From: Deltaproteobacteria bacterium
GTDB lineage: Bacteria; CG2-30-53-67
Reading direction: 5' to 3'
Length of the DNA: 20,000 bases
Assembly (NCBI GenBank): GCA_013151235.1
Contig: JAADIO010000005.1
Coordinates: 107,659 to 127,658 of the forward strand
The notes beneath the pieces are model-generated. The model worked only from the letters and a program-made list of their open reading frames with translations. It was not told where the DNA came from and did no database searches. The stretch's first letter is position 1, and each line of letters starts with the position of its first letter. Shown piece by piece: positions 13 to 20,000 of this stretch. A program made the translations under genes and the position numbers.

Positions 13-666
13 ATGCCGTTGCGCCCGCTGGAAAAACAGTTCGAGCTGAAAAAAGTTGAGGAGATCCGAAAACTGGCGGAAGAGTTCCATCAGCTCCGTG
101 AACGGATGAAAGGAGAATCAGCCGGATACATGATTTCCGGGATTCACCGCTGTCTGGAAACGGGCATCCTCTTGGGGGCATTGAGTATCTCCCTCTCCCT
201 CCTCGACATGTTTGTTCACGACATGGTCATCCTCTATGAGAAAGAGAAGGACCGGGACGGAAACCACAGCAAGGACGCATTGCCCCCCCTCAAGACCGGT
301 CATCCAAGACTCCCCTTTGAAGAGGAGATCGCCGGATTTATGGAGAACCGATGGATCGACCCGCAGGACGGCCGGACCCTTCTGAAGATGTACAGGAAAA
401 TCGGGATCCCCCTTCATCACGTGCTGTCACGACGCATCGGCCCATTTTCCAAGATGATGATTATGGGGGAAGATCGTCTTCTCGATCGTTTTCTGACGCG
501 CAGCTTCGGAGATATCCACCACATCGAGGAGATGATCGAAGACAATGCGACGGAATGTATGAAAGTGATCGTCTCTTTCCTGAGAAAATATCATATCCAG
601 GAACCGGTCATGAGCCTGCAGGAGTCCGGAAACCTGCACGACGATCTCCGGGAACTCGATTCTTAG
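13..666 (+). CDS. Hypothetical protein (217 aa, predicted helical)
   Basis: ORF with GGAG upstream of the ATG and protein-like composition. No family recognised. Its TAG stop overlaps the left end of the element at 666-828. Confidence 0.75.
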   Translation: MPLRPLEKQFELKKVEEIRKLAEEFHQLRERMKGESAGYMISGIHRCLETGILLGALSISLSLLDMFVHDMVILYEKEKDRDGNHSKDALPPLKTGHPRLPFEEEIAGFMENRWIDPQDGRTLLKMYRKIGIPLHHVLSRRIGPFSKMMIMGEDRLLDRFLTRSFGDIHHIEEMIEDNATECMKVIVSFLRKYHIQEPVMSLQESGNLHDDLRELDS

Positions 667-828
667 TGGTCCTGTTCGTAAATACTGTGACGCACCGAGA
701 GGGTTGCAGGGCGGTCTCATCAAGGCGCGCGATTGAGGCGTACCCCTTGTGGTACGGCGCAGGGAGCGCAACGCAGAGGAGGCCGCTCTGCGGCACTCAA
801 ATGCCACCGTATTTACGAACAGGACCAC
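666..828 (+). mobile_element. MITE-like element A (~163 bp) with a structured internal core
   Basis: Perfect 21-bp inverted repeat AGTGGTCCTGTTCGTAAATAC (665-685 / 809-829). Flanking direct repeat TTA (663-665 / 829-831), alternatively CTTAG (662-666 / 828-832). No transposase ORF. Confidence 0.8.
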
Positions 829-871
829 TTAGGCTGCCCCATCCGTACCTATCCGGTGCGCCATCACATAC

Positions 872-1618
872 CTATAATTCCAGACGTTTCACCGCCTTGC
901 CCCCCAGGAAGAAAAGAATCCCTGCATAGAGGAGTAATATGAGAAGAGAGATCCGGGGGACTCCGTTTCCGGCGACAATGCTTCGAAGGGAAAGCGCCGC
1001 ATGGGTCAGGGGATAGATCATGACGAGGCTGGAAAAGGGTTCGGGCAAGCGGTCGGGAGGGAAAAAGGTCCCCGAAAGAAAGGCCATGGGAAGGATCACG
1101 AAATTGGTAAAGTTGGTCATATCCTCGTGGGAGCGGGCCAGCATGGCCGCCAGGACCCCGAGGGACGCGAAGACAAAACAGGTCAAAAACAGGATCAGGA
1201 AAAAGGTGGGCGTGTAGACAATCTTTACATGAAGATAGAGACTGATGCCGATGAGCAACCCTGCGGAAAAAAGCCCCTTGAAACATCCCGCCAGCGCACG
1301 ACCGAAGGCAATCGACCAAGGACCTACCGGAGAGACAAGGATCTCCTCGATGGTCCGGTAGTAAAGTTTGCTGATATTGAGCGTGATGGCCACACCGGAG
1401 AAGCTGTTGTTCATCGCGGAAAGTGCAATGATTCCCGGAAGGACAAAGATGAGGTAATCGAGGCCCTGGACATGCATTCCCCGCCCCAGTCCCCACCCGA
1501 AGGTCACCAGATAGAGCGCCGGCATGACCAGACTTCCGGCGAAAAATTTTATGAATTTTTTCCGGATGGAGAGCATCTCCCGCCAGAAGATCGTATAGAA
1601 TCCGGGCACGCGGATCAT
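872..1618 (-). CDS. ABC-2 type transporter permease (DrrB/NodJ-like)
   Basis: Multi-TM protein with Y..F.LPGI, P..FLSG.FFP and PLTH motifs. Start moved to ATG at 1618 (MIRVPG), which follows GGAGG. Confidence 0.9.
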   Translation of the reverse strand: MIRVPGFYTIFWREMLSIRKKFIKFFAGSLVMPALYLVTFGWGLGRGMHVQGLDYLIFVLPGIIALSAMNNSFSGVAITLNISKLYYRTIEEILVSPVGPWSIAFGRALAGCFKGLFSAGLLIGISLYLHVKIVYTPTFFLILFLTCFVFASLGVLAAMLARSHEDMTNFTNFVILPMAFLSGTFFPPDRLPEPFSSLVMIYPLTHAALSLRSIVAGNGVPRISLLILLLYAGILFFLGGKAVKRLEL

Positions 1619-1694
1619 CCCATCCTCCTGCCCGCAGAGAACTCCAAAAATGATCCCGACGGATTGCTCCTCCAGAAAAATACAGCGCAACATT

Positions 1695-1828
1695 TGATGG
1701 TGTCGTAAAAAGTCACGAAGCCCTTCGACAAGCCCAGGACGAACGGTGTAAGTGATTGATATTCCGTTCGTGGTGAGCTTGTCGAACCATGAACGAAATC
1801 CGGAAAACGACTTTTTACGACTTCATCA
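1695..1828. mobile_element. MITE-like element C (134 bp) enclosing a REP-like hairpin
   Basis: TIR TGATGGTGTCGTAAAAAGTC (1695-1714) / GACTTTTTACGACTTCATCA (1809-1828), 18/20 match. Flanking direct repeat CATT (or ACATTT at 1690-1695 / 1828-1833). Internal hairpin TTCGACAAGC..CGAACGG..CCGTTCG..GCTTGTCGAA. A near-identical copy starts at 19911. Confidence 0.85.
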
Positions 1829-1831
1829 CAT

Positions 1832-2671
1832 TTAGTCAAGAATCTTTTCCCCCGTAAGGTTTAAAAAAACATCTTCCAGATTGGTATGGCGGATCGTGAC
1901 ATCGATCCGCAACCGACCGGCATAGGCGACGGCCTCCTCCCGGGTCCGGCAGAAATGGATTTCGCAGCCGTTTTTATTGTTGCATTCCACGACATAGGCC
2001 CCGACCTTCTCCTTCAGCCGGCCCGGAGAATCGAGGGCGATCATCTTTCCTTTCCGCAGGATCCCGACCCGTTCACAGAGGGCTTCGGCCTCTTCAATGT
2101 AGTGCGTGGTGAGAAGGACGGTGATCCCCCGGCTCTTCAGCTCCTCGATGAGCCCCCAGATCTTCCGCCGGATCTGCGGATCGAGTCCAACCGTCGGCTC
2201 ATCCAGAAAGAGAACACGGGGATCATGCATCAAGGCCCGTGCAATCAGGAGGCGCCGCTTCATCCCGCCGGAGAAGTGATCGACCTGTACTTTCGCTTTT
2301 GCCTCCAGATCGGAAAAATTCAACAACTCGGAGATCCGCCGCCGCCGTTCACGGCGTGGCATTTGATGAAGTCTCCCGTGGTATTCAAGATTCTCTTCCG
2401 CCGTCAATTCAATCTCCAGGTTCAACCCCTGCGGGGCCACTCCGATCAACCGCTTCACCCCGATCGGCTCTTGTGCGACGTCAAGGCCATCGATCACGGC
2501 CCGGCCTTCGGTAATCTTCGCAAGGGTCGTCAACATTCGAATCGTTGTCGTTTTCCCGGCTCCGTTCGGCCCGAGAAGACCGAAGATTTCCCCTTTCGGA
2601 ACGGAGAGGTTCAGCCGGTCTACGGCAGTCAGACGTCCAAAACATTTCGTGAGATTCTCAGTCCGGATCAT
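1832..2671 (-). CDS. ABC transporter ATP-binding protein (DrrA/NodI-like)
   Basis: Walker A GPNGAGKTT, signature FSGGMKRR, Walker B LFLDEPT, H-loop TTH. Confidence 0.95.
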   Translation of the reverse strand: MIRTENLTKCFGRLTAVDRLNLSVPKGEIFGLLGPNGAGKTTTIRMLTTLAKITEGRAVIDGLDVAQEPIGVKRLIGVAPQGLNLEIELTAEENLEYHGRLHQMPRRERRRRISELLNFSDLEAKAKVQVDHFSGGMKRRLLIARALMHDPRVLFLDEPTVGLDPQIRRKIWGLIEELKSRGITVLLTTHYIEEAEALCERVGILRKGKMIALDSPGRLKEKVGAYVVECNNKNGCEIHFCRTREEAVAYAGRLRIDVTIRHTNLEDVFLNLTGEKILD

Positions 2672-9097: not shown

Positions 9098-10385
9098 CCC
9101 TGCTCCCGACTGACGGATTGCAGCATCTTCCAGAACCCGGGGAAAGACGTCTGAATGCAGGAGACATCTTCGATCGTTGTTCCCCGGTCACACCGCAGTC
9201 CCGCCACGGCCATGGCCATGGCCACCCTGTGATCACCGAAACTGCTGCAAAGCCCCCCCCGTAATGTGTCCCGCCCCCGGACGGCAAGGCCATCATCATA
9301 TTCTTCCACCTCCGCTCCGATGGTGCGAAGGTTCTCGACCATCGCATGAATCCGGTCGGTCTCTTTCACCCGCAGTTCGGCGGCGCCGGTAATCTTCGTC
9401 TCCCCCCGGGCAAAGGCCGCAGCAACACAGAGGATGGGGAACTCATCAATCGTGGAGGGAATCTCTTCCGGCCGGACGGTCGTCCCTTCAAGGTCCGCAT
9501 CTTCCACGTACAGATCGGCGATCGGTTCTTCTCCCCCCGCCTTCTCTTCGACCCGGATCCGCGCGCCCATCCGCTTAAGGATCTTCAACAAACCCACGCG
9601 GGTCGGATTGATCCCCACATCACGCAGGACAATCTGCGACCCTCCGATCAGGGAGGCGGCTACCAGGAAAAAAGCCGCCGAAGAAAAATCGGAAGGAACA
9701 TCAACCGTACAAGCGGAAAGCATCCCCCCCCCTGCACCGACACCGTCGTCCCCTCCCGTTCCACGGCATAACCGAACTGTCGCAGCATCCGCTCCGTGTG
9801 ATCCCTCGACAAGGTCGGTTCGGTAACCGACGTCCGGCCCGAGGCACTGAGCCCGGCAAAGAGAAGGGACGATTTCACCTGGGCGCTGGAAACGGGCGAG
9901 ACATACTCCATGCCCTGTAGCCCTCCACCGCGAACGGCCAGCGGAGCCAGGCGGGCCTCCTCCCTTCCAAGGATGGAGGCGCCCATCATCCGGAGTGGAC
10001 GGGTGACCCGCCCCATGGGACGCCGACAGAGATATTCATCCCCCGTCAGGACGGCAAAAAAATCCCGTCCCGCGAGCAAGCCGACTAAAAGACGCATCCC
10101 CGTTCCGGAGTTGCCCATATCGAGAACCCCTTCCGGTTCCTGCAACCCGGAAAGACCCTTACCCCGAAGGATGATCCGTTCCCCTTCGTCCCGGATGGCG
10201 ACACCCATTTTCCGGAAGGCCCGCAGGGTATTCAGGGAATCCTCTCCCCGAAGCAACCCCCGGATTTCCGTCTCCCCTTCCGCGATCGACCCTAAGATGA
10301 CGGCCCGGTGAGAGATCGATTTATCTCCCGGCACCCGGAGTTCTCCCTTTAATGAACCCGATTTTTTTACGACCTGTCGTTTCAT
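9094..10385 (-). CDS. aroA: 3-phosphoshikimate 1-carboxyvinyltransferase, split by a frameshift at a G9 tract (+ strand C9, 9724-9732)
   Basis: N-half has [30 protein letters not shown]-half in another frame has [25 protein letters not shown]. Adding one G gives a single ~430-aa ORF. Confidence 0.93.
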
Positions 10386-10386
10386 A

Positions 10387-11250
10387 TCAGAGTTTCTTTC
10401 GAAGGTTCTTTGCTTCCTGAAAGGTCCGGCTCAACGTTTCAAAATGGTCCCCCCGGATCTGCAACTTGATCTTTTCCAGCACCGCCTCGTACTGTTCGAT
10501 CATTTCCACGATTTTCTTCCGGTTCATCCGGCAGATGTCCCGCCACATCTCCGGATGACTCGCCGCAATGCGGGTCATATCCCGAAAACCGCCTGCCGCA
10601 TAATCGGTAATATCGGGATAGTCCTCCGTCATTTCCATCAATGTCCCGGCCAGGGCATAGGCAACCATATGAGGCAGATGGCTCACCGCGGCAAGAATCG
10701 TATCGTGTGCGTCGGCCTCCATCTCAACCACAAGGGAGCCGACCGATTCCCACATTGCATGGACCCGGGCCAACGCCTCGGAATCCGTCCGCCGGGTCGG
10801 CGTCAGGATGGTCCGGCGATGCAGAAAGAGGTCCTCCCGTGCAGCGGAAGCCCCCGACGCTTCACTCCCGGCAATGGGGTGTCCCCCCACGAAACACACA
10901 CCCGCCGGAAGGCCGGACTCCAGTTCCTTCACCAGCTCTTCTTTCACACTCCCCACATCGGTCAGGAGGGTCCCCTCCTCTAACAGGGGGGCGATTTCCT
11001 TCCCGATCGTCACGATACCCTGGACCGGTGTGGCCAGCACAACAAGATCCGCGCCGGGCAGGGCTTTTCCAGGATCATGAAAGTATACATCGACAGCGCC
11101 CCGTTCCCGGGCCTGCTCCAGGTTCTCCCGGCCTCGTCCGACACCGACGACCTTACCGAAGATCCCTTTCGCTTTCCCGGCCAGGCCGAGGGACCCTCCG
11201 ATCAGGCCGACGCCGATGATCACCACTTTTTCAAACCAACACTTTTGCAT
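10387..11250 (-). CDS. tyrA: Prephenate/arogenate dehydrogenase
   Basis: GVGLIGGS Rossmann motif, [16 protein letters not shown]...[16 protein letters not shown]. Start is uncertain among 11256, 11253 and 11250. Confidence 0.95.
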
Positions 11251-11305: not shown

Positions 11306-12385
11306 TCATCCGGCGGAAAGGACCTTCGTCAAGGCGGTCACCAGTCGTTGATTCTCTTCCGGAAGGCCGATGGTGATCCGCAGGTATCCTCCCCCCATGG
11401 GACGAACAATCACCCCTTCCCGCAGCAACGCCTCATGCAAACCCCTTCCATCCCGTCCGGTGTCAATCCAGATGAAATTGGCCTCCGTCGGTGTAAAAGC
11501 AAGGCCGAGGCCCTTGAGTGCCCGGTAGAGAAAGTTCCTTCCTTCACGGTTGACGGCAAGGCTTTTGCCCACATGCGAATCATCTCCCAGCGCGGCGAGG
11601 GCCGCCGCCTGCGCCAGCGACCCCGTATTGAAAGGCTCCCGCACCCGGTTTAAGGCATCGATGATTTCCGGATGGGCAAATCCGTAACCGATCCGGAGCC
11701 CGGCCAGACCGTAGATCTTGGAAAAGGTCCGAAGGACCATGACATTCCGTCCCGCCTTCAAAAACTCCAGACCGTCGGGGTAATCGGGCGACTCCACGTA
11801 TTCGAAGTAGGCCTCATCCATGACAACCAGTGTCTCCGCAGGGATCGCGGCAAAAAAACGGTCGAGGGCCTCCCGGGTGACGATCGTCCCCGTCGGGTTG
11901 TTGGGATTGGCGATAAAAACGCAGAGGGTCCGCTCATCCACCCGCTCCGCAAGGGCATCGAGATCATAGGTCTCCGCCTTCATCGGAGCGGCACGGTACT
12001 CCCCTCCCACCGCCTGCGTCACCAAGGGATAGACGACAAAGGACTTTTCCGAGGAGACGGTATTCATCCCCGGTTGGTAGAAGGTCCTGACGATCAGTTC
12101 CAGCAGCTCATTCGACCCGTTACCGAGAATGATCTCCTGCGGCGTCACGTCAAACCGTTCGGCCAGGGTCCCTTTCAGATAATAGCCGTTTCCGTCGGGA
12201 TAACGATGAAGATCATGCAGATGCCTCGACACGGCGTCGAGGGCTTTCGGTGAAGGGCCGAGAGGGTTTTCATTGGAGGCAAGCTTGACGGTCTTTTTCA
12301 GTCCGAGTTCCCGTTCTACCTCGTCGATCGGTTTCCCCGGCACGTAGGGAGTCAGCTTGCGGATATGCTCCGGCACGCGGGTCAT
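11306..12385 (-). CDS. hisC: Histidinol-phosphate / aromatic aminotransferase
   Basis: KLASNENP, RYPD, GNGSNE, NPNNPTG, DEAY, RTFSKIYGLAGLRIGY. Confidence 0.96.
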   Translation of the reverse strand: MTRVPEHIRKLTPYVPGKPIDEVERELGLKKTVKLASNENPLGPSPKALDAVSRHLHDLHRYPDGNGYYLKGTLAERFDVTPQEIILGNGSNELLELIVRTFYQPGMNTVSSEKSFVVYPLVTQAVGGEYRAAPMKAETYDLDALAERVDERTLCVFIANPNNPTGTIVTREALDRFFAAIPAETLVVMDEAYFEYVESPDYPDGLEFLKAGRNVMVLRTFSKIYGLAGLRIGYGFAHPEIIDALNRVREPFNTGSLAQAAALAALGDDSHVGKSLAVNREGRNFLYRALKGLGLAFTPTEANFIWIDTGRDGRGLHEALLREGVIVRPMGGGYLRITIGLPEENQRLVTALTKVLSAG

Positions 12386-13602: not shown

Positions 13603-14049
13603 CTATTCGGGCGGACGCACGGTCAGGACCGGACAGGAGGCGCTTCGAACCAGTTTCTCCGTTGTACTCCCGAGCAGAAAACGGGAGAGTCCTTTGCGGC
13701 CATGGGTCCCCACCACGACAAGATCGACATGCTCCTCACGAATCACCTCAAGCAGTTCATGAATCACATCGCCGATCTTCATAATTTTCTTGACGGAAAC
13801 ACCCTGGTTGATTATTTCAGCCGCATGTTGATCCAACGCCTTGGTCACCTGTTCCCGGATCAGCTCCTCCATCTGTGTCGCGGCATGGACCTCGCTGTAG
13901 GCATCATACATTTCATACCGGATATCGACGATGGAAACGAGAACGACCTCCGCCTGAAGTGCCCGGCAAAGATTCACGGCATACTCAAGGGCATAATGAG
14001 AATATTCGGAACCATCCGTGGGAATCAGGATTCTTTTGATAAAGGACAT
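13603..14049 (-). CDS. Universal stress protein (UspA family)
   Basis: ILIPTDGS, DLVVVGTHGRKG, LLGSTTEKLVR.A.CPVLTV. GGAGG RBS. Confidence 0.95.
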   Translation of the reverse strand: MSFIKRILIPTDGSEYSHYALEYAVNLCRALQAEVVLVSIVDIRYEMYDAYSEVHAATQMEELIREQVTKALDQHAAEIINQGVSVKKIMKIGDVIHELLEVIREEHVDLVVVGTHGRKGLSRFLLGSTTEKLVRSASCPVLTVRPPE

Positions 14050-14086
14050 GGCTGCACCTCCCTCTCTAATTTACCGGACCGACGGC

Positions 14087-14608
14087 TTATTCCCCGCCGC
14101 ATTCTCCTTCGTCCCCCCGGATCTTATCCAGGGCATGCGGAAGGGCGGGAAGGAGAACGGCAAGGTTTTCCCTGACCCCCCGGGGACTGCCGGGAAGATT
14201 CACGATCAACGTTTCCTTCCGGATCCCGCAGACGGCCCTCGAAATCATGGCATGGGGGGTCTTCTTCAGGGAGGCCGCCCGCATCGCTTCGGCCATCCCC
14301 GGCAGTTTCCGGTCGAGGACCCGCAGGGTTGCATCCGGTGTCACATCCCGGGGAGAAACGCCGGTTCCTCCCGTGGTCAGAATCAGATCGACTTCTCTAC
14401 TGTCCGACAACCGACGCAGAACCGCCTCAATCTCCGGCTGTTCATCGGGAAGAATCTCCTGGAACACCACCTTCGCGGAAAGGGAAAGAATCATCTCCCG
14501 CAGAACCCCGCCGCTGACATCCTCCCGTTCCCCCCGGGCCCCCTTGTCACTCAACGTCAGCAGAGCCACCCGGTAGAACCTGTTTCGTTCCTGCCCTTTT
14601 TCCACCAC
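14087..14608 (-). CDS. mog: Molybdopterin adenylyltransferase (MogA/MoaB family)
   Basis: LTLSD, D.SG, TTGGTG.SPRDVTPDAT, SRA, NLPGSP. GTG start at 14608 follows GGAGG. Confidence 0.92.
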   Translation of the reverse strand: MVEKGQERNRFYRVALLTLSDKGARGEREDVSGGVLREMILSLSAKVVFQEILPDEQPEIEAVLRRLSDSREVDLILTTGGTGVSPRDVTPDATLRVLDRKLPGMAEAMRAASLKKTPHAMISRAVCGIRKETLIVNLPGSPRGVRENLAVLLPALPHALDKIRGDEGECGGE

Positions 14609-14609
14609 T

Positions 14610-15062
14610 TCAGCGGTCCTCCCCCGACTCCAGCACCGTAAGGAGATCTCCCGGCCGGACCACACCCCCGCGTAAGACCCGCACAAAAATCCCCTCCTTC
14701 GGCATCACGCAATCACCGGCCTGACGGTAGACGGCACAGCGACTGCCGTGGCACTCCTTCCCGATCTGCGTCACCTCGATTTCAATCTCTTCCCCGATCG
14801 AAAGTTGTGTCCCCACCGGGAGACTCAGCAAGTCCATCCCCTCGGTCGTCAAATTCTCCGCAAAATCTCCGGGACCGACATCAAGTCCTTTCTCCTGCAT
14901 TCCGGCGATACTCTCAATGGCCAGCAGGGAGATCTGCCGGTGCCACTTCCCGGCATGGGCATCCGATTCGATCCCGTAACCCGCTCTCACCTCGGCCGAG
15001 GGAACGCTCTTTTTCTTCTCTCCCTTTTCGGCGCTGACATTGACGGAAACAATTCGTCCCAA
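14610..15062 (-). CDS. MOSC domain-containing protein
   Basis: DAHAG.WHRQ.SLL, GDFAENLTT, TQIGKECH..C, GDCVMPKEGIF. TTG start at 15062 follows AAGGAG. Confidence 0.92.
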   Translation of the reverse strand: MGRIVSVNVSAEKGEKKKSVPSAEVRAGYGIESDAHAGKWHRQISLLAIESIAGMQEKGLDVGPGDFAENLTTEGMDLLSLPVGTQLSIGEEIEIEVTQIGKECHGSRCAVYRQAGDCVMPKEGIFVRVLRGGVVRPGDLLTVLESGEDR

Positions 15063-15082
15063 CTCTCTTTTCTCCTTCAGAG

Positions 15083-15185
15083 ATCCAACGTCAAAAAAGG
15101 GCCCGGCAAACGGATGAGAGTCTCTCAAGATAAAACTTGGAAAGTACCGCGTTTGTCGGCGGTCCGCACGAGCGACTGGTTGGAC
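15083..15185 (-). other. Eroded attC-like site downstream of the antitoxin
   Basis: Minus strand R'' GTCCAAC (15185-15179), 5-bp spacer, then GCTCGTGCGGACCGCCG. CCGACAAACG pairs with CGTTTGCCGG. R' GTTGGAT (15089-15083). The L' box is degenerate. Confidence 0.55.
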
Positions 15186-15196
15186 CGTCCAGCTGC

Positions 15197-15493
15197 TTAC
15201 ACCGTTGCTTCCGCATGCAACTTCAAACCAAGCGCTTTCAATACCTTAAGGATCGTATCAAAATTAGGGGTTCTTTCACCGGAGAGCGCCTTGTAAAGAC
15301 TTTCACGCGACAGGCCGGCATCACGAGCCACTTGCGACATACCTTTGGCACGGGCAATATCACCTAAGGCTTTAGCAATGAATGCAGCATCACCATTTGC
15401 CTCTTCAAGACAAGCCTCAAAATAGGTGGCCATCTCTTCCGGAGTACGAAGATACTCGGCGACATCGTATCGGGTAGTGATGGTTTTCGCCAT
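15197..15493 (-). CDS. Addiction module antidote protein (HI1420/HigA-like HTH antitoxin)
   Basis: YD.AEYL...E, ALGDIARAKGMSQVARDAGLSRESLYKALS, P.F.TILKV..ALG. AGGAG RBS. Confidence 0.93.
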   Translation of the reverse strand: MAKTITTRYDVAEYLRTPEEMATYFEACLEEANGDAAFIAKALGDIARAKGMSQVARDAGLSRESLYKALSGERTPNFDTILKVLKALGLKLHAEATV

Positions 15494-15502
15494 GATATAC
15501 TC

Positions 15503-15792
15503 CTATAAATTTTGCGCCAGGCGCAAGGCAGTCCTGATATCTTCGGCCTGGCTGTTTTTGTCACCACCGGCCAGCAAAACAACCAAGGTCCTCCTGTGCT
15601 GTTTGTAATAAACCCGATAACCAAGTCCGTAGTCAATTTGCACCTCTGAGATGCCTGCACTGACAGGCCTGGCATCTCCTGGATTTTGGCTGCCGACCGT
15701 TTAACTCGCACCAGAATACGAGCACGGGCCCGAATGTCCCTTAAACCGTTGAACCATTTTGCAAAAACCTCCGTCTTGCGAATCTCAACCAT
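15503..15792 (-). pseudogene. Addiction module killer protein (HI1419/HigB, RelE superfamily), frameshifted
   Basis: MVEIRKTEVFAKW..GLRD.RARARI, then a 1-nt deletion near 15684-15687, then NPGDARPVSAGISEVQIDYGLGYRVYY...LLAGGDKNSQAEDI...L*. The span is 290 nt, one short of 97 codons. Confidence 0.88.
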
Positions 15793-15798
15793 GGCCAC

Positions 15799-15827
15799 AC
15801 TGTAGCCCAAAGGATACACAATGTCAA
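15799..15827 (-). promoter_or_regulatory. TA promoter (probably leaderless) with overlapping operator palindrome
   Basis: TTGACA-17 bp-TACAGT, only 6 nt before the toxin ATG. Inverted repeat TGTAGCC-N4-GGATACA (15801-15818) overlaps the spacer and -10. Confidence 0.75.
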
Positions 15828-15919
15828 TAGACAATTGTTAATACCATGGCAGGAGCTTGGGGTCATGCCCTCGAGAGCAGTCCTCTTGGGATCTTTAATC
15901 TTTTGGGGTCTTTAATTCT

Positions 15920-15939
15920 TGATGGTCTCGTAAAAAATC
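15920..15939 (+). repeat. Solo terminal repeat of element C family
   Basis: TGATGGTCTCGTAAAAAATC matches the TIR at 1695-1714 at 18/20 positions. No partner end was found. Confidence 0.6.
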
Positions 15940-15953
15940 CAAGACCCTTTCAT

Positions 15954-16169
15954 CTATAGCGCATGCGGAGGTGGCGGGATCACTATCCCTTGACCTGGCG
16001 ACGGTGGTGGAACCTGCCCCGGAGGTGGCGGAGGCGTTGTTTGCCCATATCCAGGGTCAGATGGCGTACCCAGCAAAGGTGTTTTGTCTTGTGCGTTTGC
16101 TATGGCCATTCCTTCCACCAACAGTAATGTTAGTACTAGCGGAACTACGATCAGTCGAAAATTAGTCAT
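15954..16169 (-). CDS. Small secreted proline-rich protein (71 aa)
   Basis: AAGGAG RBS. ATG overlaps the upstream TAA (TAATG). Signal peptide ending ANA-Q, followed by poly-Pro repeats. Confidence 0.6.
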   Translation of the reverse strand: MTNFRLIVVPLVLTLLLVEGMAIANAQDKTPLLGTPSDPGYGQTTPPPPPGQVPPPSPGQGIVIPPPPHAL

Positions 16170-16411
16170 TATAGTTCTCCTTTTGTTTTGTATTTTTTTA
16201 TCTCTTTTTCCAATGCTCCAAGTCTGGCGCCCATAGCAACCAGCTCGTGCCAGACGAAATATCCAACAACGGAGATCAACACCCATGACAATATACCCGT
16301 GCCGCCTGGGCCAACTATGGGTGGCATTGGACCGACTAAAGCACATCCGGACAATGACACAATGACCGTCGTCACGCTGATGAGGAAAACTAGTCTTGGT
16401 ACATGTTTCAT
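16169..16411 (-). CDS. Small membrane lipoprotein-like protein (80 aa), first gene after attC
   Basis: GAGG RBS, lipobox LSGC, second TM segment and a basic coiled-coil tail. Starts ~27 nt after the attC core, as expected for a cassette gene. Confidence 0.65.
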   Translation of the reverse strand: MKHVPRLVFLISVTTVIVSLSGCALVGPMPPIVGPGGTGILSWVLISVVGYFVWHELVAMGARLGALEKEIKKYKTKGEL

Positions 16412-16437
16412 GAAATCTTCCTCTTTTTATTTCTTAC

Positions 16438-16508
16438 GTGTAACGATTGAAAACATCGGCGCTAGACAGCACAGCTGTTTGGCGTCCGGGTGCCTTGATT
16501 GGTGAGCC
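16438..16508 (-). other. Integron attC recombination site (71 bp)
   Basis: Minus strand GGCTCAC-CAATC-AAGGCACCCGGACGCCAAACAGC-TGT-GCTGTCTAGCGCCGATGTTTT-CAATC-GTTACAC. The bottom strand folds into a long stem with extrahelical T and G on the R''/L'' arm and a 5x5 unpaired spacer. Confidence 0.8.
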
Positions 16509-16524
16509 AATTAGTAACACTTAT

Positions 16525-16703
16525 AAAAAATCGTTTTACACAATGACAAATAGGTCTGCTCGATACGGCGGCTGTAATGGCGGGAACGCAGGGCCTCCAA
16601 TAACCCGGTCGAGACGTCTCGGCTTTTGGGGTCGTGGCCGCTGCATGGCAAAAACGCTAAGGGGGGAGGCACAAACGATCGGAGGAGAAATAGTATCCAA
16701 CAT
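16525..16703 (-). pseudogene. intI: 5' fragment of an integron integrase (two +1 frameshifts, truncated)
   Basis: Joining three frames gives ...KPRRLDR/LLEALRSRHYSRRIEQTY/CHCVKRFF, matching the IntI N-terminal pattern KP.LLD.LR.ALR.RHYS.RTE..Y..W.KRF. ATG at 16703 follows AGGTG. Confidence 0.8.
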
Positions 16704-16735
16704 TTTGCACCTATTTTTCAGGATGAATATACGTG

Positions 16736-16764
16736 ATACTATATTTTGGACTTTCTTCTGTCAA
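16736..16764 (-). promoter_or_regulatory. Sigma70 promoter upstream of the intI remnant
   Basis: TTGACA-17 bp-TAGTAT, about 30 nt upstream of the intI ATG. Confidence 0.65.
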
Positions 16765-16782
16765 GGCCTTTTTAGCGACATC

Positions 16783-16937
16783 CGCCGAGGGTAAACCCCG
16801 GCGCTGCAAGACTTTTGCTTTTGACCTTTCAAATTCCCCCATCCCCCCTTTAGCTAAAAAGGGGGAGCACAAGGCCGTGGTCCATCGCTCTTGATCCTTG
16901 TCTTTTCCCCGTGACACCCCGTGTCCCCCGTGGTTAA
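16783..16937. repeat. Cluster of short palindromes and oligomer repeats
   Basis: Hairpin CGCCGAGGG-TAAA-CCCCGGCG (16783-16803), CCCCCTTT..AAAGGGGG palindrome (~16843-16865), and three CCCCGTG units at 9-bp period (~16907-16931). Confidence 0.5.
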
Positions 16938-17036
16938 ATGCTTCCGACTTTGATCTTGCCCTTGCCTAAGCTCGATGATCTCCGCTTCACCTGTCTCCTG
17001 CAAAACCGGGGGAAGTCCCGGTGCGGAAGCCCGGTG

Positions 17037-17924
17037 TCAGAGCAGTTGAGGATTCCGGAAGGTCCCCTGAATCCGGAAGGAATAATAACCCTTCGAATCC
17101 GGCGTTTTGTGAAAGAACCGAGCCACCCCCTTCAGGTTGATCGGATCATCCGCCTGCGCCTTGAGATGTGCCGTCAGGTTGAGTGGGCTCTCCCGTATAT
17201 CCCGTGCATCAAGTCGGACTTCACCGTCGATTTCCGCCAGCAGGATGTCGCTGGCAACATGACATTTCCGAATCCTGAGAACCCCTTCCCTCAGGTCGGT
17301 CTTCACCTCGATGGCCTGGAAGTTGAAATCGGGAAGATCGAGCCCCTGAATCAGGATATTCCGGACACTCCCGTTCTTCAGGGATGCCGTAATTTTGCCC
17401 GTTGCCTTGAGATATCTCCCCTCCTCCGGCACCCGAATTGTCCCTTCACCGCTCAGTCGTCCATCAATTTTAAAGTCCCGCAGATAAAAGGGGGACAGCA
17501 CATCCTCGATCCGGAGCTGCGCCACTTGGAGGAAATATTTCCCCGCCCCTGAAGAAAAGGGGCGCCGGATCCGGACGCTGCCGGAGAGTGTCCCGCCGTA
17601 TCCTTTCCCCTGAAAATCCGCACGGACTCTGCCTCGGAACAGAGACCAGGGGGAGACCCGGAGGGAAAGCAAATTGCCCCGGTAGATCGGGATTTGTCCG
17701 TCCCCATTGGGCAGCAGAATCTCTACGGGCTGGAATGAACAACGCAGCGGCAGGTGAAAATCGAAGTGATCATAACGCATTGTGATCTTTCGCTCTTCAC
17801 TGAAGCGGTGGATCAGGCTTTCAGCCAAGCGGCCGTAAGGAAAGAAGATCAGCAGCAGAAGGCAGAACAAAAACAGTCCGTAGAGAACGTACAGGATCGA
17901 AAAACCTCCGTGATTCCCTTTCAT
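17037..17924 (-). CDS. gspN: Type II secretion system protein GspN-like (deltaproteobacterial type)
   Basis: N-terminal TM followed by FPY, beta-rich body with V.PWSL..G, GYGG..SG, L.G.G, and a C-terminal I.GT..NP motif. Confidence 0.7.
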   Translation of the reverse strand: MKGNHGGFSILYVLYGLFLFCLLLLIFFPYGRLAESLIHRFSEERKITMRYDHFDFHLPLRCSFQPVEILLPNGDGQIPIYRGNLLSLRVSPWSLFRGRVRADFQGKGYGGTLSGSVRIRRPFSSGAGKYFLQVAQLRIEDVLSPFYLRDFKIDGRLSGEGTIRVPEEGRYLKATGKITASLKNGSVRNILIQGLDLPDFNFQAIEVKTDLREGVLRIRKCHVASDILLAEIDGEVRLDARDIRESPLNLTAHLKAQADDPINLKGVARFFHKTPDSKGYYSFRIQGTFRNPQLL

Positions 17925-17985
17925 CGGTTCTCCCCGTGAATGAATAATTCTTGTCGAAAGCCTTTGTTTTTTGATAAGTTAAATG

Positions 17986-18128
17986 GTAACTACTCAGGTC
18001 ACCTCTCTTTTTCCGTATGACTGCGTTGTTGCGGTGCTCAAATCCTCAACGTATGAAAAATACGCCGAAGGTGTCCGCGCTCCTCACGCCTTGTCCTGCA
18101 GGAAAATAGAAGCAACCTGAGCAGTTAC
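17986..18128 (-). mobile_element. MITE-like element B (143 bp) with a structured internal core
   Basis: TIR GTAACTACTCAGGT (17986-17999) / ACCTGAGCAGTTAC (18115-18128), 13/14, extending imperfectly ~22 bp further in. Flanking 8-bp repeat GTTAAATG (17978-17985) / GTTAAGTG (18129-18136). Confidence 0.78.
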
Positions 18129-18163
18129 GTTAAGTGAATTAACCTAACGAGGGAAGGAAAGCA

Positions 18164-18823
18164 ATGTCAAGAAGAAAGTTGGCGCTGGAATGTTCGCTGG
18201 TTACGCTTTTTCTCTTTCTCTTTGTGGCAGCGCTCCATCTTCTGCCCCTGCCCTCCGGGCTTCTCCGTTTCGGGAATGCGCTACTCACCCCCGGCTGGAT
18301 CCTCCTCCCCTGGATTCTGCTGACCCTTCACGGAGAACCGTTCGAAAATTTCGGATACCATCTTAACGATCTTCGCCGGTCGATCGGAACGGGACTGCTC
18401 GTATCGGTCCTGCTCCTAGTCCCCTATTTTCTTCTCTATCGATTCTGGATCGGCAAACCTTCCCTGCACTTCGGAAACGGACACGAGACGGCCCGCTGGC
18501 TGAAGATGTGCCTCTACCAGTTCACCGTCATAGCCCTGCCGGAAGAGTTCTATTTCCGGGGGTACCTCCAGACCCGCCTCAATCGGATTTGGGGTCGCCC
18601 CCATCACCTCTTCGGTGCCCCCTTCGGCCCGGGGCTGATCGTCACCTCCCTGATCTTCATGTTCTTTCATCTCCTCCTTGCCGTCAACCTCTGGAACGTG
18701 GGGATTTTCTTTTCCGCCCTCGTCTTCGGATGGCTCCGGGAAAAGACCGATTCCATCATCGCGCCGATCCTCTTCCATGCCCTTTCCAATATCGCCCTTT
18801 TTTCCTTTCAGGGGAGGTTCTAA
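18164..18823 (+). CDS. CPBP/Abi (type II CAAX) glutamic intramembrane protease, myxosortase-like
   Basis: PEEFYFRGYLQ (EExxxR), FxxxH and HxxxN catalytic motifs in a multi-TM protein. Confidence 0.9.
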   Translation: MSRRKLALECSLVTLFLFLFVAALHLLPLPSGLLRFGNALLTPGWILLPWILLTLHGEPFENFGYHLNDLRRSIGTGLLVSVLLLVPYFLLYRFWIGKPSLHFGNGHETARWLKMCLYQFTVIALPEEFYFRGYLQTRLNRIWGRPHHLFGAPFGPGLIVTSLIFMFFHLLLAVNLWNVGIFFSALVFGWLREKTDSIIAPILFHALSNIALFSFQGRF

Positions 18824-19847: not shown

Positions 19848-19877
19848 TTGACAGACTGCGGGAGCGTCGGTTAAACT
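19848..19877 (+). promoter_or_regulatory. Candidate sigma70 promoter reading into element C copy 2
   Basis: TTGACA-18 bp-TAAACT. Confidence 0.45.
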
Positions 19878-19910
19878 ATAATAAAGTCGTGTTTTTACAG
19901 GGATTTTTAT

Positions 19911-20000
19911 TGATGGTGTCGTAAAAAGTCACGAAGCCCTTCGACAAGCTCAGGGCGAACGGTGTAAGTGATTGATATTCCGTTCGTGGTGAGCCTGTCG
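19911..20000. mobile_element. Second copy of element C (cut by the window edge)
   Basis: 87/90 nt identical to 1695-1784, same orientation. Confidence 0.88.

Follow-up and report, generated by a model that had tools for sequence, protein, structure and literature searches.

A probable remnant of an inverted-integrase integron in the gspN-MOSC spacer of a deltaproteobacterial genome

Inverted integron-integrases, among them members from Treponema, form a group that is already known (available portions of PMC4889954 and PMC3607928). Clusters of attC sites lacking an integrase (CALIN) have also been described, and intI pseudogenes were reported near 15 of 279 CALIN in the available portion of PMC4889954. 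Treponema phagedenis carries an integron remnant made of attC sites and cassettes without intI, located at the syntenic integron site of the genus, according to the accessible part of PMC3607928. Here we analyse a stretch of 20,000 nucleotides (nt) from a Deltaproteobacteria bacterium (assembly GCA_013151235.1, contig JAADIO010000005.1), called the window throughout. Its spacer between gspN and a MOSC-domain gene holds a promoter with the 5' end of an integron-integrase gene (intI), an attC-type site, two small open reading frames (ORF1 and ORF2), a toxin-antitoxin (TA) module and a second attC-type site. All of these are on the minus strand, and the attC come downstream of the intI remnant, which is the layout of the inverted group. 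We propose that the segment is probably the fossil of an inverted-integrase chromosomal integron, which would have entered the gspN-MOSC spacer after this genome split from its genus relatives.

The comparison with the described systems shows both likenesses and differences. As in the Treponema denticola-type inverted integrons, so far as the available sections of PMC3607928 and PMC4889954 describe them, the integrase of this lineage is transcribed toward the cassettes, an arrangement seen in two relatives of the same family (G004 and G007). Unlike in those integrons, the window retains only the promoter and ~60 damaged intI codons, without a recognisable attI, and the host comes from a small phylum, represented by 14 species genomes in the collection searched. 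With CALIN that have a nearby intI pseudogene the locus shares two co-oriented candidate sites of attC type in a 1.4-kb stretch of one strand, the lack of a working integrase and an adjoining intI pseudogene; it differs in that both sites are degenerate and would probably score below the usual thresholds. Moreover, the survey in PMC4889954, in its available portion, sought the C-terminal IntI-specific domain, whereas here the N-terminal end is kept, without that domain (TIGR02249/intI_Cterm). The locus would therefore be missed by that procedure. The T. phagedenis remnant is comparable in having lost the integrase from an inverted-type chromosomal integron and in keeping static cassettes, in so far as the accessible part of its description goes; here, in contrast, the site is empty in genus relatives and further integrase fragments lie elsewhere in the genome. 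Finally, the TA cassettes of sedentary chromosomal integrons (available part of PMC13108822) are likewise self-promoted type II pairs in a cassette array, whereas the toxin of the window is frameshifted and the close relatives of its module were located outside attC-bounded cassettes at all 13 loci examined.

The segment thus belongs to known kinds, namely inverted integrons and attC clusters with integrase pseudogenes, and is ordinary in principle. What sets it apart is the extent of its decay, its invisibility to standard detectors and a possible take-over of the transcription of a housekeeping operon. It shows an integron partway through decay in a phylum that has hardly been studied, and adds that lineage to those with the inverted-integrase type. 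Remnants of this sort evade the usual detectors, integrase hidden Markov models (HMMs) returning nothing and attC scores falling below threshold, and surveys of integrons, In0 and CALIN therefore probably undercount old losses. If the take-over were true, it would be a concrete case of mobile-element debris driving a housekeeping operon.

The integrase remnant and its lineage

DNA homology clearly ties the remnant to integron-integrase genes. By blastn, window 16535-16771 matches C42:301-535 of the same genome (84.5% identity over 238 nt, E 1e-65), 16529-16776 matches C45:5648-5893 (81.5%, E 2e-61) and 16678-16771 matches C73:1709-1802 (87.2%). The partner regions on these three contigs are the starts of decayed integron-integrase genes detected by TIGR02249. 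The copy on C45 (C45:5227-5893) shows an in-frame loss of model positions 44-188, that on C42 (C42:37-535) is frameshifted, and in that on C73 (C73:1595-1802) the first codons are fused to a C-terminal piece, with a large internal loss. At the protein level, a tblastn search with the C45 integrase ORF aligned to window 16703-16602 (73.5% identity, E 6e-10). At least two 1-nt insertions put the window copy out of frame, and its homology stops at ~16527. Profile methods are blind to it: neither reading frame of the remnant matched any Pfam or NCBIfam family at E<=0.1, and scans of the whole genome with TIGR02249 and PF13495 gave no match on the contig of the window. A first-pass annotation of this DNA had called an IntI N-terminal remnant at this place, behind a near-consensus promoter at 16764-16736. 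Both calls hold, and DNA and peptide at 16776-16527 belong to an integron-integrase lineage.

The block common to the intI copies opens ~12 nt before the -35 box and comprises the promoter, a leader that contains an upstream ATG, and the start of the integrase. Promoter-like sites are not in excess in this region (2 found vs 1.9 expected from shuffles), and it is the comparison of copies that singles this one out. Promoter and leader are 86-89% identical to the paralogous sequences on C42, C45 and C73, all of which retain them, so that the promoter is kept in 4 of 4 copies of this genome while the integrase body is destroyed differently in each. Against C42, the promoter and leader are identical at 64 of 72 positions and the following stretch to an internal ATG at 52 of 57, compared with 90 of 124 beyond the internal ATG. 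As promoter and leader outscore the dead coding part, these small numbers suggest that the promoter region may have been kept under constraint. The 57 nt of window 16647-16703, from the upstream ATG to the likely true integrase start, show 84-91% identity among the C42, C45 and window copies. The same upstream-ATG frame aligns in tblastn before the integrase start of G004 and G007 at 67-71% identity, a figure that covers alignments extending into the integrase. This conserved stretch might encode a leader peptide or act as a regulatory leader. A search for LexA (TIGR00498) in this genome, 99% complete, gave no match.

The intI fragment of the window is too short for a tree and was tied to its lineage via the C45 copy. 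The C45 protein shares 67-71% identity with the full-length IntI of the family relatives G004 and G007, and 36-56% with an IntI encoded on C55 of its own genome. An integrase fragment on C41 was not counted as a same-lineage copy, being merely 49% identical to the C45 protein. With TIGR02249 (cut-off 265 bits), the IntI of G004 and G007 score 488.8 and 485.7 bits; matches over the cut-off occur in 10 of 61 genomes, this one included, and in neither of the two same-genus genomes.

In both family relatives the attC sites lie downstream of intI on the same strand, as judged with a covariance model (R2, described below). In G004 (locus L036), intI at 9817-10860 (+) is followed by attC at 11731-11797 and 13708-13773 (+), scoring 52.8 and 45.8 bits, each of them placed after a co-oriented ORF, the first of which has an HNH domain. 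Behind intI of G007 (locus L037; 3368-2235, minus strand) come an EcoRV-type restriction gene and a gene for a D12 methylase, then an attC at 160-101 (-) scoring 54 bits. Upstream of intI, the attC models found no site in the fetched loci of either genome; that side carries a conserved small-gene pair and thiC. As an observation of its own, positions 101-2126 (-) of L037 (G007:C20) hold a complete EcoRV-type restriction-modification pair as one two-gene cassette directly behind the integrase.

A quick IQ-TREE analysis covered 80 rows, made of 75 of the 80 loci fetched around IntI relatives (five with a match <280 amino acids (aa) or containing a stop were left out), four relatives or paralogues and one Xer outgroup. 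A subclade with a Shimodaira-Hasegawa-like approximate likelihood ratio (SH-aLRT) support of 100 unites the G004 and G007 proteins with rows from Treponema, Chlorobiaceae, Coriobacteriia, Omnitrophota and Nitrospirales. Of the 14 rows with co-oriented attC, the enclosing clade (SH-aLRT 96) takes in 13, the exception being L052, and it contains none of the 23 classical rows. Because the attC of G004 and G007 are co-oriented downstream of intI and their IntI group with Treponema and Chlorobiaceae, the same-strand, inverted-type arrangement that the first-pass annotation had read in the window is supported at the level of sequence comparison. The tests that this annotation had named as able to overturn it went its way, the attC matches doing so at sub-threshold scores.

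In our reading of the table of IntI loci with attC, found with a narrower model (R1), 25 were classical, their attC upstream of intI and on the other strand, and 13 inverted, their attC downstream and co-oriented. The inverted loci come from Acidobacteriota, Gemmatimonadota, Coriobacteriia, Omnitrophota, Elusimicrobiota and Gemmata, and include L052 and L072. As 13 of the 38 attC-bearing IntI loci show it, the inverted arrangement is not rare in environmental genomes.

The attC sites, the cassette and the TA module

The attC models are home-made covariance models derived from 80 loci around IntI relatives (934 kb). Candidates came from a crude AAC...GTT hairpin scan, and 34 sites from 13 loci were aligned; a structure check of the R and L boxes found 87.4% of cells paired, vs 23.5-39.8% with the partners slid. 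Model R1 gave 176 matches at E<=0.05 across the 80 loci, and the broader R2 was built on 104 matches in 38 sources. Since the seeds were picked by an AAC...GTT and TAAC/GTTA filter and the calibration was short, the scores are more trustworthy than the E-values.

R2 returned ten matches in the window at E<=10, and the two attC of the first-pass annotation rank first and second among them, both on the minus strand and both sub-threshold; the third match scores 10.1 bits. The best R2 score in 80 kb of other DNA from the same genome is 11.2 bits. The site at 16508-16438 retains its L boxes, its R'' reads GGCTCAC, with the AAC triplet lost, and its R' reads GTTACAC. The site at 15185-15083 retains R'' (GTCCAAC), L'' and R' (GTTGGAT), has lost L' and ends 20 nt ahead of the MOSC start codon. 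This second site, previously called an eroded attC, is recovered at full length by both models at exactly these coordinates. The first site is the top match of R2 in the window, at E ~0.1, and R1 does not find it. Both are real-looking but degenerate. By the definition in PMC4889954, which asks for two or more attC sharing a strand within 4 kb, they would be a candidate pair.

Behind the first attC lie ORF1 and ORF2, whose junction is a TAATG in which the ORF2 start overlaps the ORF1 stop. They had been proposed as two small coupled ORFs, which they are, the second being a truncated gene. By eye, ORF1 has a lipoprotein-type signal and a membrane helix. ORF2 keeps only a signal peptide and a proline-rich linker, whereas its homologues are 223 and 238 aa long, and its C-terminal domain has left no trace in the window. 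ORF1 matched no Pfam or NCBIfam family. An exhaustive HMMER search gave seven proteins at E<=0.001, including the query, of which three small ones are 49-52% identical; a word-indexed protein search returned the query alone, and no ORF1 turned up in the 13 other genomes of the phylum. ORF1, ORF2 and the TA genes have no paralogues in this genome and no homologues in ~1.1 Mb of fetched loci, mostly around IntI genes.

The ORF1-ORF2 pair is present in two metagenome contigs, L128 and L129, at 69-71% DNA identity over window 16344-16003. On L128 the pair is directly followed by an attC of 50.6 bits, then by a cassette with an attC of 35.3 bits and by a third attC of 21.7 bits, so that this homologue is a gene cassette in an array. 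The R'' behind the L128 pair is GTATAAC; at its 5' edge the cassette reads GATATAC in L129, and in the window GTTACAC (16444-16438). The window R' fits the L128 R'' at 6 of 7 positions. Because the edge of the window cassette thus complements the R'' of the L128 cassette, the attC at 16508-16438 is independently supported. Between ORF2 and the TA promoter neither R1 nor R2 found an attC at E<=10; a scrap of a repeat stands there instead.

The TA module comes next and, as first annotated, is self-promoted. Its antitoxin is intact and its toxin split over two frames. The N-part of the toxin covers profile positions 2-33 and the C-part positions 50-94, in different frames, scoring 26.6 and 61.1 bits vs the TIGR02683 cut-off of 62.85; the TIGR02683/TIGR02684 pair is therefore not intact. 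Antitoxins 81-89% identical occur in nine other genomes, which include G004, G007 and members of unrelated families, and matches at E<=1e-20 were found in 19 of 401 genomes, this one included. The neighbouring toxins are intact (96-97 aa) in all five translated of these nine loci. DNA homology to other TA loci spans from 15837-15827, at the -35 box, to 15207-15204, at the antitoxin stop, and no attC was found near the TA relatives in 13 loci (39 kb, ~1.5 kb each side, E<=2). With homology bounded in this way and attC absent from those loci, the module reads as a self-contained mobile unit. With its close relatives outside attC-bounded cassettes, it may have sat here as an integron cassette or have inserted into one.

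Several of these and other points weigh against an integron fossil. The scores of the two window attC (14.5 and 12.9 bits) lie far under the 21.7-54 bits of true sites, which range over 23.6-54 bits in the relatives and on C40 of the same genome and over 21.7-50.6 bits in L128 (R2); by the model E-values they would not stand out genome-wide, the models themselves are home-made, filter-seeded and rough in their E-values, and R1, even with filters off, has no match at 16508-16438. In the search for attI, 16545-16412 did not significantly resemble the DNA downstream of intI in G004, G007, G008, C45 and C73, nor that on either side of the C55 intI, a weak comparison, as the attI of the inverted lineage is not defined. 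The homology of the TA module stops at the antitoxin stop, short of the eroded attC, and its relatives show no attC within the ~1.5 kb covered on each side in 13 loci. Co-orientation by itself would be expected by chance at even odds. Finally, the attC of the L128 cassette (857-929) matches the type of C40:504-576, and because of this resemblance the window cassette could come from the pool of another integron.

Some of these points would fit a reading in which nothing beyond the intI scrap is integron-derived, the attC being chance hairpins and the ORFs and TA module an unrelated islet. Low scores (E ~0.1 and 0.24 for the window), TA relatives without attC and unremarkable single-strand folding all agree with it; the z values on the two strands are -2.1 and -2.25 for the first attC stretch and -0.08 and -0.78 for the second, although free folding is a poor test of degenerate attC sites. 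Chance would, however, have to account for two matches falling exactly on coordinates and strand fixed beforehand, at ranks 1 and 2, when the 80-kb control reaches 11.2 bits at best, as well as for an ORF1-ORF2 homologue in a true array and for a cassette boundary that obeys the R''/R' rule. We regard this reading as very improbable.

Insertion into the spacer and decay of the element

The location of the segment between gspN on one side and the MOSC and mog-like genes on the other, and its AT-rich composition, had both been noticed in the first-pass annotation, which also proposed comparing this interval in relatives. All of this is borne out. The GC content is 0.465-0.505 inside the segment vs 0.55-0.61 in the flanks. 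Similarity to the two same-genus relatives, G001 and G002, stops at 17037, in the gspN stop codon, and restarts at 15062, at the MOSC start; the spacer of this genome is thus an insertion or replacement particular to it. The corresponding gap is an empty site of 180 nt in G001 and measures 673 nt in G002, where it contains an unrelated ORF. G001 and G002 have a common conserved spacer sequence, with a promoter-like motif recognised by eye, and this sequence is absent from the genome studied here. The coordinates of all features are collected in Table 1.

Table 1. Features of the gspN-MOSC region, with window coordinates
Feature	Position	Strand	Basis
gspN	17924-17037	-	TIGR04411, E 1.5e-38
Genome-specific insertion occupying the gspN-MOSC spacer	15063-17036 (1974 nt)	-	synteny in relatives and GC
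Integrase promoter TTGACA-17 nt-TAGTAT	16736-16764	-	10/12 matches; conserved in C42, C45 and C73 copies
Leader/upstream reading frame and ~60 codons of intI pseudogene	16527-16703	-	blastn, alignments, tblastn
Degenerate attC	16440-16508 (R' reaches 16438)	-	R2 14.5 bits, E ~0.1, top match of the window
Cassette gene 1 (ORF1), 80 aa, intact; predicted lipoprotein-like small membrane protein	16169-16411	-	ORF and ribosome-binding site
Cassette gene 2 (ORF2), truncated, 71 aa	15954-16169	-	aligns with homologues over residues 1-68 only
End fragment of multi-copy genome repeat, 19 nt, at truncation joint	15918-15936	-	repeat found 76 times in 40 contigs
TA promoter TTGACA-17 nt-TACAGT	15799-15827	-	promoter search; homology to other TA loci starts 15837-15827
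RelE/ParE-family toxin gene (TIGR02683), frameshifted near 15690	15503-15792	-	split profile match
Antitoxin, intact, TIGR02684/PF21716, helix-turn-helix	15197-15493	-	124 bits vs cut-off 53.7
Degenerate attC	15083-15185	-	full length with R1 (8.9 bits) and R2 (12.9 bits, E ~0.24)
MOSC-domain gene, then mog-like gene	TTG start at 15062	-	Pfam/NCBIfam scans

We hypothesize the following course of events. An inverted-type integron would have inserted into the gspN-MOSC spacer, and one deletion would have taken the integrase from ~codon 60 on, attI and the coding portion, at least, of the first cassette, leaving the attC of that lost cassette at 16508-16440. The next cassette, with its two genes for small exported proteins, would have kept its 5' boundary and first gene and lost two thirds of the second gene together with its own attC, at a joint marked by the repeat scrap. 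The self-contained TA module with its own promoter would follow, its toxin frameshifted, and then the last eroded attC abutting MOSC, both attC sites having eroded over time. The first-pass annotation had explained the remnant by a deletion of most of intI, attI and the first cassette or cassettes. A single deletion does not suffice, because the bulk of cassette gene 2 and the attC behind it have vanished as well. With the AAC of one R'' and the L' box of the other attC lost, and the local integrase dead, the element is very probably fixed in place and probably no longer able to recombine.

The remaining integron parts of this genome bear on an alternative course. A full-length IntI is encoded at a contig end, on C55:474-1475 (+), scoring 445.6 bits vs the 265-bit cut-off of TIGR02249, and falls among the classical rows of the quick tree. 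Four attC, all on the plus strand, lie on C40, also at a contig end (504-576, 1026-1088, 2202-2322 and 3058-3182; 23.6-47.8 bits); the cassettes of this array (C40:1-3200) include a SnoaL-like gene and a Phd/PIN toxin-antitoxin pair, and the array stops 39 nt short of a core gene. The C55 integrase and the C40 array may join as one working integron. Single attC lie near contig ends on C5:12275-12366 (-; 49.4 bits), adjoining a 402-aa ORF that resembles a transposase by eye, and on C28:11910-11981 (+; 37.4 bits). This search for dispersed attC scored 150 of 789 first-look candidates and hence gives a lower bound. Near the intI fragments on C45, C42, C73 and C41, no attC was found at E<=5 in the parts fetched.

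In the alternative, the attC cluster arose independently of the intI fragment and the two were later joined by recombination between repeats, the cluster stemming either from cassette insertion at a secondary site or from a split of the integron made of the C55 intI and the C40 array. Secondary-site insertion and rearrangement are both listed as origins of such clusters in the available part of PMC4889954. A chimeric joint of this kind agrees with the central sequence that the L128 cassette attC shares with C40:504-576, with the further attC on C5 and C28 next to insertion-sequence genes, with the four dispersed intI fragments of the inverted lineage, and with multi-copy repeats both left of the segment (16896-17021) and within it (15936-15918). 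It sits less well with an intI fragment that stops merely ~18 nt before the first attC, in the orientation expected for its lineage, and it asks for one event more than decay in place. We therefore consider the chimeric joint rather unlikely, while giving it appreciably more weight than chance hairpins, and we favour decay in place of an inverted-type integron. As a separate observation, an identical central stretch of ~33 nt occurs in the first attC of the C40 array (504-576) and in the attC at L128 857-929, on an unrelated metagenome contig, as would fit a common pool of cassettes or a closely related organism.

Possible present role and other observations

By annotation, MOSC-mog is a molybdenum-cofactor-related operon. 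Between the integrase promoter and ORF1 there is no strong terminator, one weak terminator-like hairpin being located inside the first attC, and no terminator was found between the antitoxin and MOSC. The conserved integrase promoter would thus be predicted to read into cassette gene 1, and the TA promoter to read through the antitoxin into MOSC-mog. As the spacer of the G001/G002 type, with its promoter-like motif, is gone and no terminator stands in between, MOSC-mog is probably transcribed from the TA promoter or from further upstream. Antitoxins of such modules usually repress their own promoter. It is tempting to go further and propose that, with the integrase itself lost, its promoter and leader persist as a portable expression module and that MOSC-mog now depends on integron-derived promoters, perhaps under antitoxin control, a proposal that we hold to be unlikely on the sequence features at hand.

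A known riboswitch in the spacer before MOSC was considered and rejected, as an Rfam scan of 14000-18200 gave no match at E<=5.

Two kinds of multi-copy intergenic repeat, often side by side, occur in the window (16896-17021, 19876-19998 and ~1700-1720) and in many contigs. The first kind reads ...TTAACCACGGGGGACACGGGGTGTCACGGGG..., and pieces of it are also found upstream of the C42 and C45 intI copies. The second kind ends in ...GACTTTTTACGAGACCATCAA; this end, searched as the motif TTTTTACGA[GC]ACCATC, accounts for the 76 occurrences in 40 contigs.

In G002, a second gspN copy lies at 1884-2965 of locus L040 (G002:C271) and is 69% identical to the gspN of the window. The ORF that follows it, in place of MOSC, resembles a nucleoside-diphosphate kinase by eye. 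This second copy may reflect a strain mixture or a second locus in that assembly.

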